Assembly: GCA_964610865.1 (NCBI GenBank)
Contig: CAZSWX010000001.1
Coordinates: 1-24,558 of the forward strand
DNA length: 24,558 nt
Source of the DNA: an uncultured Enterobacteriaceae bacterium
GTDB taxonomy: Bacteria; Desulfobacterota; Binatia; Bin18
Direction: 5' to 3'
Every line of letters starts with the position of its first letter. The first letter of the stretch is position 1. Shown piece after piece: positions 23,114 through 23,734 of this stretch. The translations under genes were made by a program, and so were the position numbers. Under the pieces are notes generated by a model. The model saw nothing but the letters and a program-made list of their open reading frames with translations, was not told where the DNA came from and made no database searches.

Positions 23114-23734
23114 ATGGAACAGCCCGTAGAAATAGTCGAATTTTCGGATTATCTGTGACCTTGGTGCTTCCCGGCCGCGGAGCGGCTGCGTACAATCAAA
23201 GAACGGTTTGGAAATAGTGTGAATATCACGTGGCGCCCGTTCGCGTTGCGGCCTATCTTTGATGGGGCACCCTTCGAGTTTGCCGGCAGTTACGTAGAGA
23301 AGGCATGGCGCAGGGCCTCCTCTCTAGCAATGCCGGATGGACTCGCCTTCACGATGTGGCCGCACACGGAGTTCCCCCGTTGGAGTCTCCCCGGCCTAGA
23401 GGCCGGCGTGGCAGCACAGAAACAGGATGAGGCCTTATTCCTCCGCTTTCACGTGGCCCTCTATCGGGCCTTTTTCGTGGACAATAAGAATTTATTAGAG
23501 AGGGACACGCTGGTGACTGTCGCCCGTGATGTTGGCTTGAGTATCAATGAATTTGTCTCAGATCTGGAGGATCCGGGCTTTCGAGAGATGGTCAGGCGCC
23601 AGTGTGAAGAAGCTACCGACTCTTATTTTGTGAGCGCGGTCCCAACCGTGCTAATAGGCCCAACAAGGCGGCAAATAGGAATGGTAGACCAACAGGCGTA
23701 CCTTTCCGATTTAGCGGCCTGTGGTCTATCCTGA
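23114..23734 (+). CDS. DsbA/FrnE-like thioredoxin-fold oxidoreductase, predicted selenoprotein (Sec at codon 15, UPWC motif)
   Basis: RBS GGAGG (23104-23108), ATG 23114: MEQPVEIVEFSDYL-[TGA 23156-23158]-PWCFPAAERLRTIKERFGNSVNITWRPFALRP..., in frame with the track ORF at 23219. Total 206 aa, with the cis-Pro loop SAVPT near the C-terminus. It aligns with the FrnE pattern DxxCPWC...WRPFELxP. Confidence 0.9.
23164..23193 (+). promoter_or_regulatory. Candidate bacterial SECIS element
   Basis: Upper stem CGGCCGC (23172-23178) / GCGGCUG (23182-23188) with apical loop GGA starting 21 nt after the UGA. Lower stem GUGC (23164-23167) / GUAC (23190-23193), with an unpaired UUCC on the 5' side. Confidence 0.72.

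Follow-up and report, generated by a model that had tools for sequence, protein, structure and literature searches.

A DsbA/FrnE-type oxidoreductase gene of a marine bacterium with an active-site UGA very probably read as selenocysteine

The locus, its reading frame and its product

The window analysed here is the whole stretch of 24,558 nucleotides of contig CAZSWX010000001.1. On its forward strand, the frame 23114-23734 starts with an ATG (23114-23116), ends with a TGA as its own terminator (23732-23734) and, read directly from the sequence, contains a single internal stop, the TGA at 23156-23158. This TGA is codon 15 and lies in the context F-S-D-Y-L-TGA-P-W-C-F. The full read-through product has 206 aa with U at position 15, the nucleophilic position of a predicted U-P-W-C motif, and the resolving cysteine of this UxxC motif, Cys18, is encoded by the TGC at 23165-23167 (+). 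A Shine-Dalgarno-like GAGGAGG can be read 5 nt 5' of the start codon (23102-23108, +), and 2 nt separate the ATG from the stop of the upstream ORF (TAA, 23109-23111). The longest conventional ORF, which is what a conventional gene caller gives, begins with a GTG at 23219 and ends at 23734 (+). This shortened frame is the one found in the ORF list; it encodes 171 aa, the CxxC motif is missing from it, and a 98%-identical database protein (P0002) has the same length of 171 aa. The original prediction had pointed to this late start with no redox motif, to the in-frame upstream ATG preceded by a ribosome-binding site, and to the TGA of codon 15 as the sole interruption within FSDYL-TGA-PWCF; our reading of the sequence agrees with it on all of these points.

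The gene immediately upstream (22191-23111, +) belongs to the inositol-monophosphatase family (Pfam PF00459, E 4e-53). Its best NCBIfam model is HisN, with 236 bits for a cut-off of 275 bits; the earlier naming of this gene as hisN is thus plausible as far as a HisN-like member of the family is concerned, but the score stays under the cut-off of the model itself. The GTG start listed for this ORF runs about 140 nt into the preceding short-chain dehydrogenase gene (21542-22333; overlap 22191-22333), and the Pfam match starts only at residue 50. Because of this overlap and of the late beginning of the match, the real start of the HisN-like gene is probably further downstream than the listed GTG. 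On the other side, a strong inverted repeat (23785-23822) is found between the 23114-23734 gene and a convergent TPP-enzyme gene. Its fold reaches -28.4 kcal/mol (z -5.67, none of 200 shuffles being as good), and it is likely a bidirectional terminator. The repeat is long and perfect, and a simple terminator scan missed it, probably owing to its large loop. The convergent TPP-enzyme gene is common to congeners, including G021, and the upstream neighbour differs. Consequently, no conserved operon partner of the DsbA-like gene was found in the congener neighbourhoods that we compared, and hence no pointer to a substrate.

The coding sequence 23114-23734 (+) is delineated by its translation, its Pfam DSBA match, the conservation among orthologs from the ATG onwards and an AF2 model. 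The Pfam DSBA domain (PF01323) matches residues 7-194 of the full frame, straight across the TGA, with an E-value of 1.2e-19 and 71.3 bits (cut-off 25.6). In a family profile search, the best solved relative is the FrnE protein of D. radiodurans (E 2.3e-19), whose CPWC aligns with U-P-W-C, Cys18 being paired with its second Cys. Membership of the DSBA/FrnE family, with U opposite the first Cys of CPWC, had been proposed together with a test of the DSBA model on the full frame, and both the Pfam match and the FrnE profile alignment bear this out. The AF2 model, built on a 31-sequence alignment, has a pLDDT of 94.6 and a pTM of 0.91. In this model, strand beta-1 comprises residues 5-11, UPWC (15-18) comes directly before a helix (18-35), and a cis-Pro177 loop is present. 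The codons of Val176-Pro177 (23639-23644, +) were assigned from the alignments to this cis-proline loop of the thioredoxin fold, which faces the active site. P16, W17 and C18 are invariant, Cys18 in both of the alignments A1 and A2; of the loop residues, P177 does not vary in the 31-sequence alignment, nor does V176-P177 in a 9-sequence alignment. The single C-terminal cysteine, Cys203, is unconserved among orthologs. In a protein whose first strand starts at residue 5 and whose active site is already reached at residue 15, a signal peptide could not be accommodated, as had been anticipated; according to the model, a cytoplasmic location of the protein can therefore reasonably be presumed.

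The top folds returned by Foldseek were 2in3 (TM 0.82), YjbH, FrnE (TM 0.77-0.79), DsbM and kappa-GST. The closest in structure, 2in3 from Nitrosomonas europaea, has a thioredoxin fold with a helical insertion and is no selenoprotein. Likewise, Geobacillus YjbH (6ghb), Pseudomonas DsbM (5hfg) and the kappa-class GST belong to the same fold class and none is a selenoprotein; 2in3 and these three share 14-21% identity with the present protein, and YjbH is an adaptor protein, kappa-GST a transferase. FrnE of Deinococcus radiodurans (PDB 5cnw, 5cp1, 5xwh) is a cytoplasmic disulfide oxidoreductase with the same DsbA-like fold (TM ~0.77) and, like the present protein, no signal peptide, but it carries Cys where our protein would have Sec, and the identity is about 21%. 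It has 260 residues, of which 12-208 are aligned, and nothing in the 206-aa protein corresponds to its last ~50 residues. For this reason, the protein is, as judged from these comparisons, FrnE-like in its core and active site and no full equivalent of FrnE. In D. radiodurans FrnE, a second pair of Cys is located in the C-terminal extension.

Conservation of the TGA codon and the hairpin that follows it

We compared the gene with its relatives in a genome collection that holds 28 species of the genus, from which 25 full-length orthologs were obtained and 23 were fetched for the analysis of columns and codons. In each of the 25 full-length orthologs (62-67% identity), a single stop is present, and it is a TGA. 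The column FSDYL-TGA-PWC[F/Y] is the same in the 23 fetched orthologs. Outside the genus, TGA occupies the same column in a genome of the same order (G025, 54% identity) and in three genomes of the same class (G037, G026 and G036, 34-37%). Cys is found at this column in two other members of the class (G039 and G028) and in 80 homologs of other phyla; the Cys-form homologs come from Binatia, Rokubacteria, Myxococcota and other groups, and among the homologs that bear a name, the nearest are from MAGs labelled 'Candidatus Binatia' or 'Deltaproteobacteria'. It had been suggested to check whether homologs have Cys or TGA at this codon, and the answer is that TGA is kept in the genus, the order and some relatives of the class, Cys being present in G039, G028 and the 80 others. 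In the alignments, the distribution of U15 and Cys is that of a classic Sec/Cys pair. One congener, G014, which is 92% complete, is missing the DsbA-like ortholog altogether.

One way to dismiss an internal TGA is to regard it as a TGC or TGT that was misread in sequencing or assembly. However, codon 15 is covered by contigs of three independent marine metagenome studies, all of which read TGA, and one of these contigs represents a strain variant with seven differences in 340 nt; near the codon, only synonymous or conservative variants occur, and the hairpin described below is free of them. Together with the TGA of the 25 independent genus genomes, these contigs refute an error, the chance of which we consider negligible. 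The locus was found in plankton and seawater metagenomes of at least five studies, and the organism is marine. The RNA record consists of one metatranscriptome contig, which begins just past the TGA. A change of the genetic code was also considered. In this genome, TGA functions as a regular stop and ends 314 of the 985 long ORFs as well as this gene itself; a genome-wide code change is therefore excluded, and recoding must be local and site-specific.

If the TGA were a true stop, the product would be the 171-aa protein starting at GTG 23219, or the gene would be a pseudogene, and the first 14 codons would not be part of it. This is indeed how gene callers annotate the gene, and the 47 database homologs are all shortened. 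However, such a product would lack strand beta-1 and the entire redox motif, and no alternative start is conserved, the ORFs of the relatives beginning at differing codons. Moreover, amino-acid conservation among orthologs starts exactly at ATG 23114 and is absent 5' of it. Within this 5' part, codons 3, 4 and 11 vary synonymously in the genus orthologs while the residue is kept, which indicates that the 14 codons preceding the TGA are both translated and under coding selection. Finally, more than 28 genomes, at 34-67% identity, carry the nonsense codon at one and the same position, which is unlike what is seen in pseudogenes. We therefore consider genuine termination at codon 15 very improbable.

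We then turned to the RNA that follows the UGA. The core of a SECIS-type hairpin is found at 23172-23188 (+), with a 5' arm at 23172-78, a GGA loop at 23179-81 and a 3' arm at 23182-88 (local fold -11.3 kcal/mol). This core has 7 bp and is GC-rich, and its loop starts 20 nt past the UGA. Such a distance between the UGA and the loop is within the usual range for bacterial SECIS elements. A weak lower stem of 4 bp extends the core to 23164-23193 (+; best single hairpin -12.5 kcal/mol), this lower stem being variable among orthologs. Among 23 distinct Sec-form sequences, 22 have the apical loop of their best local hairpin at exactly +20. The distant Sec-forms have, at the same place, a hairpin of other sequence, with a 5-7-bp stem and a CGUGC or CGUGU loop, and a single one of these hairpins has a bulged U; every one of them has a G at loop position 1 or 2. 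In the case of the 23 genus orthologs, codons 20-24 show a synonymous entropy of 0-0.26 bits, to be compared with a mean of 0.87 bits for conserved degenerate codons elsewhere. When the protein was kept fixed and synonymous codons were drawn according to the codon usage of the genome, 2.9% of the recoded sequences folded as well at this place (p = 0.029).

Other measures were less discriminating. The mean best-hairpin energies of the Sec-forms (-13.3 kcal/mol) and of the GC-richer Cys-forms (-13.7 kcal/mol) are not separated by stability alone, the Cys-form hairpins being scattered in position. The z-score obtained from dinucleotide shuffles of 66 nt was only -0.44. With RNAalifold, no good consensus was obtained when the genus was combined with the distant Sec-forms, since their hairpins are of two types with unequal loop sizes and registers. 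An Rfam scan of 23000-23400 gave no match to a SECIS family; to our knowledge, Rfam holds no general bacterial SECIS model, and we read this null scan as uninformative. According to these results, the hairpin at 23172-88 is a candidate SECIS-type element, supported by its position and conservation rather than by its stability. It resembles the SelB-bound bacterial SECIS (E. coli fdhF type; bSECIS consensus as in PMC1088965) in being located within the coding sequence just 3' of the UGA and in having a G in the apical loop; it differs in that the genus core is very short (7 bp and a 3-nt GGA loop) and has no bulged U. In addition, the Cys-form of a Candidatus Binatia MAG (L065) has a strong hairpin of 10 bp with a GAU loop at exactly +20 after the Cys codon, which may be the relic of a recent change from Sec to Cys.

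Altogether, 23114-23734 very likely encodes a DsbA/FrnE-type oxidoreductase in which the UGA of codon 15 is read as selenocysteine, giving the active site U-P-W-C. This decoding was the central claim of the original prediction, and the conserved TGA, the Sec/Cys pair and the hairpin in SECIS position, that is, comparative sequence evidence, support it. The scenario we propose has two steps. First, SelB carrying Sec-tRNA(Sec) would bind the GC-rich hairpin, with its loop at +20 from the UGA, and would deliver selenocysteine at codon 15 in place of termination. Second, U15, which directly precedes helix alpha-1 in the helix-inserted thioredoxin fold and lies opposite the cis-Pro177 loop, would alternate between a selenolate and a U15-C18 selenenylsulfide, and substrate disulfides would be reduced, formed or shuffled. 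In this scenario we infer the binding of SelB, the insertion of selenium, the redox chemistry and the substrates.

Selenocysteine machinery and further UxxC genes

A selenocysteine codon implies that the genome encodes the machinery to decode it, and the prediction had extended to this point. The source MAG (G000) comprises 2.3 Mb in 376 contigs and is 65% complete, with 24 tRNAs recovered. It contains selD (304 bits), whose 757-aa product is a fusion: its N-terminal part is a pyridine-nucleotide-disulfide oxidoreductase domain, which is NADH-dehydrogenase-like; this SelD is of the Cys form and is encoded on the reverse strand of contig C41 (L008:1384-3657). Its close relative G003 has the same open frame for the SelD fusion, of 761 codons. 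A search of this 65%-complete MAG with the SelA, SelB and SelB-wing profiles, Rfam and ARAGORN did not find selA, selB or tRNA-Sec. The matches to the SelB model in G000 were other translational GTPases. The sole tRNA-Sec match above the Rfam gathering score (C28, 49.8 bits) proved to be a tRNA-Ser with anticodon TGA, and ARAGORN found no tRNA-Sec among the 24 tRNAs.

The congeners are well equipped in this respect, selA, selB, selC and selD all being represented across them. SelA was found in 23 of 24 of them and SelB in all 24, and their tRNA-Sec (~70 bits) adjoins selA, with the anticodon TCA confirmed by ARAGORN in one genome. In G015, two tRNA-Sec matches of ~70 bits lie 1.3 kb apart (C5:1293175-1293266 and 1294564-1294655), a possible duplication of selC. 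Metagenome contigs L144 and L145 carry SelA at ~75% identity, and no match to G000 was obtained. The only close relative of G000 is G003 (98% identity over a partial ortholog, ~89-94% at the nucleotide level over shared contigs), and the two form a separate marine sublineage, with genomes of ~3 Mb instead of ~5 Mb in congeners and with rearranged surroundings of glmU/glmS and of the MBL-fold gene. In G003, a full-length selB (388 bits) is present together with selD. Contigs C334 and C265 of G000 align on either side of the position of selB in G003 and both stop there at contig ends, leaving a hole of 6.5 kb; the missing selB of G000 is therefore explained by an assembly gap. Neither selA nor tRNA-Sec was found in G003, which is reported to be 97% complete, and neither selA nor selC was found in the sublineage at the positions syntenic with congener G021 and contig L144. 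In G021 and L144 the gene order is selC-selA-abhydrolase-glmU-glmS, and contig C160 of G000 departs from it, with a HAD phosphatase after glmU. At the other flank, contig C16 of G000 has the MBL-fold gene followed by unrelated genes, and the G003 contig ends 87 bp past its MBL-fold gene. In consequence, the expectation of a Sec machinery is borne out only in part for this MAG: selD is present, selB would fall in the assembly gap, and the search of G000 and G003 yielded no selA or selC, both of which occur in 23 of 24 congeners.

Two more genes of the MAG appear to be of the UxxC type. Our motif screen for additional selenoproteins let through too many candidates (714), and only those on contigs C310 and C52 were upheld by Pfam. 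The first (G000:C310:1048-2085, reverse strand; L138) would encode 346 aa with the motif EFSDYQ-U-PYC, and a Thioredoxin_4/DSBA domain covers residues 176-333 across the TGA. Its match to the Rcas_1661 (seleno)lipoprotein family is weak and stays under the threshold, and its TGA is kept in G003, G012, G020, G021 and G025. The second (G000:C52:6889-7623, reverse strand; L139) would encode 245 aa with two GST_N_3/glutaredoxin-like domains and the motif FDFEG-U-PFC; its TGA is kept in G003 and G021, and G025, of the same order, has no stop there and presumably a Cys. Taken together, these gene contents point to a selenocysteine user.

Part of the doubt that attaches to the selenocysteine reading comes from the failure to find selA and selC in the sublineage. 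One could imagine that the sublineage of G000 and G003 has lost both genes, and that the UGA is decoded as Cys or Trp by near-cognate read-through, or by SelB with a differently charged tRNA. The failure to find SelA and tRNA-Sec in either genome, one of them reported as 97% complete, and their absence at the syntenic positions seen in G021 and L144, would fit such a loss. However, G003 retains a full-length selB and selD, three genes keep their active-site TGA over the divergence between G000 and G003, and the hairpin is intact and invariant. Moreover, MAGs often lose tRNA loci, as the 24 tRNAs recovered in G000 illustrate, and since selA and selC are adjacent in congeners, one unbinned contig would be enough to remove both. 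For these reasons, decoding of the UGA in some other way after such a loss seems very unlikely to us. We likewise see only a slight chance that G000 and G003 are truly without selA and tRNA-Sec, yet keep selB and selD together with SECIS-type hairpins and three or more active-site UGAs. Were this the case, the residue placed at the UGA would have to be made or delivered by some non-canonical route.

Relation to known selenoproteins and significance

Selenocysteine at this position in a DsbA-like protein has precedents. DsbA-like proteins (COG2761) with UxxC were described as a new selenoprotein family in marine plankton of the Sargasso Sea by Zhang, Fomenko and Gladyshev in 2005, with nine sequences and a predicted SECIS (PMC1088965), and DsbA-like UxxC selenoproteins were found in several genomes in 2006 (PMC1794560). 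A 2026 review lists the 'DsbA-like protein form 1', with PF01323 and UxxC (PMC13188914). The present gene, which we liken to this form by its published description, has the same Pfam domain, the UxxC motif with Sec predicted at the first Cys, and an origin in marine plankton. It also shares a hairpin that immediately follows the UGA and has a G in its apical loop, as well as the widespread occurrence of Cys-form homologs. As far as the sequence tells, 23114-23734 would thus be a genuine new, unannotated member of the known DsbA-like form 1 UxxC family and not a new kind of selenoprotein.

What sets this genus clade apart from the published members is that it has no selenoprotein annotation in the protein collection. 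In a collection of 5.8 billion proteins, all 47 close homologs are truncated at the N-terminus (123-192 aa, 52-89% coverage), and those that bear a name are called 'predicted DsbA family dithiol-disulfide isomerase'. That gene callers would truncate the gene had been foreseen, and it is borne out by the whole of this set. The search for a dedicated NCBIfam selenoprotein model gave no match, only a weak one to NF041057.

The existing knowledge of selenoproteins and of recoding is left unchanged by the 23114-23734 gene. Its significance concerns, first, annotation: the active site and the selenium dependence would be invisible in the predicted proteomes of this marine genus. Second, when the gene is considered with the two other UxxC genes and the SelD fusion, it suggests that a planktonic lineage spends selenium on thiol-redox enzymes of both the cytoplasm and the envelope, which would bear on estimates of the selenium demand of marine microbes.
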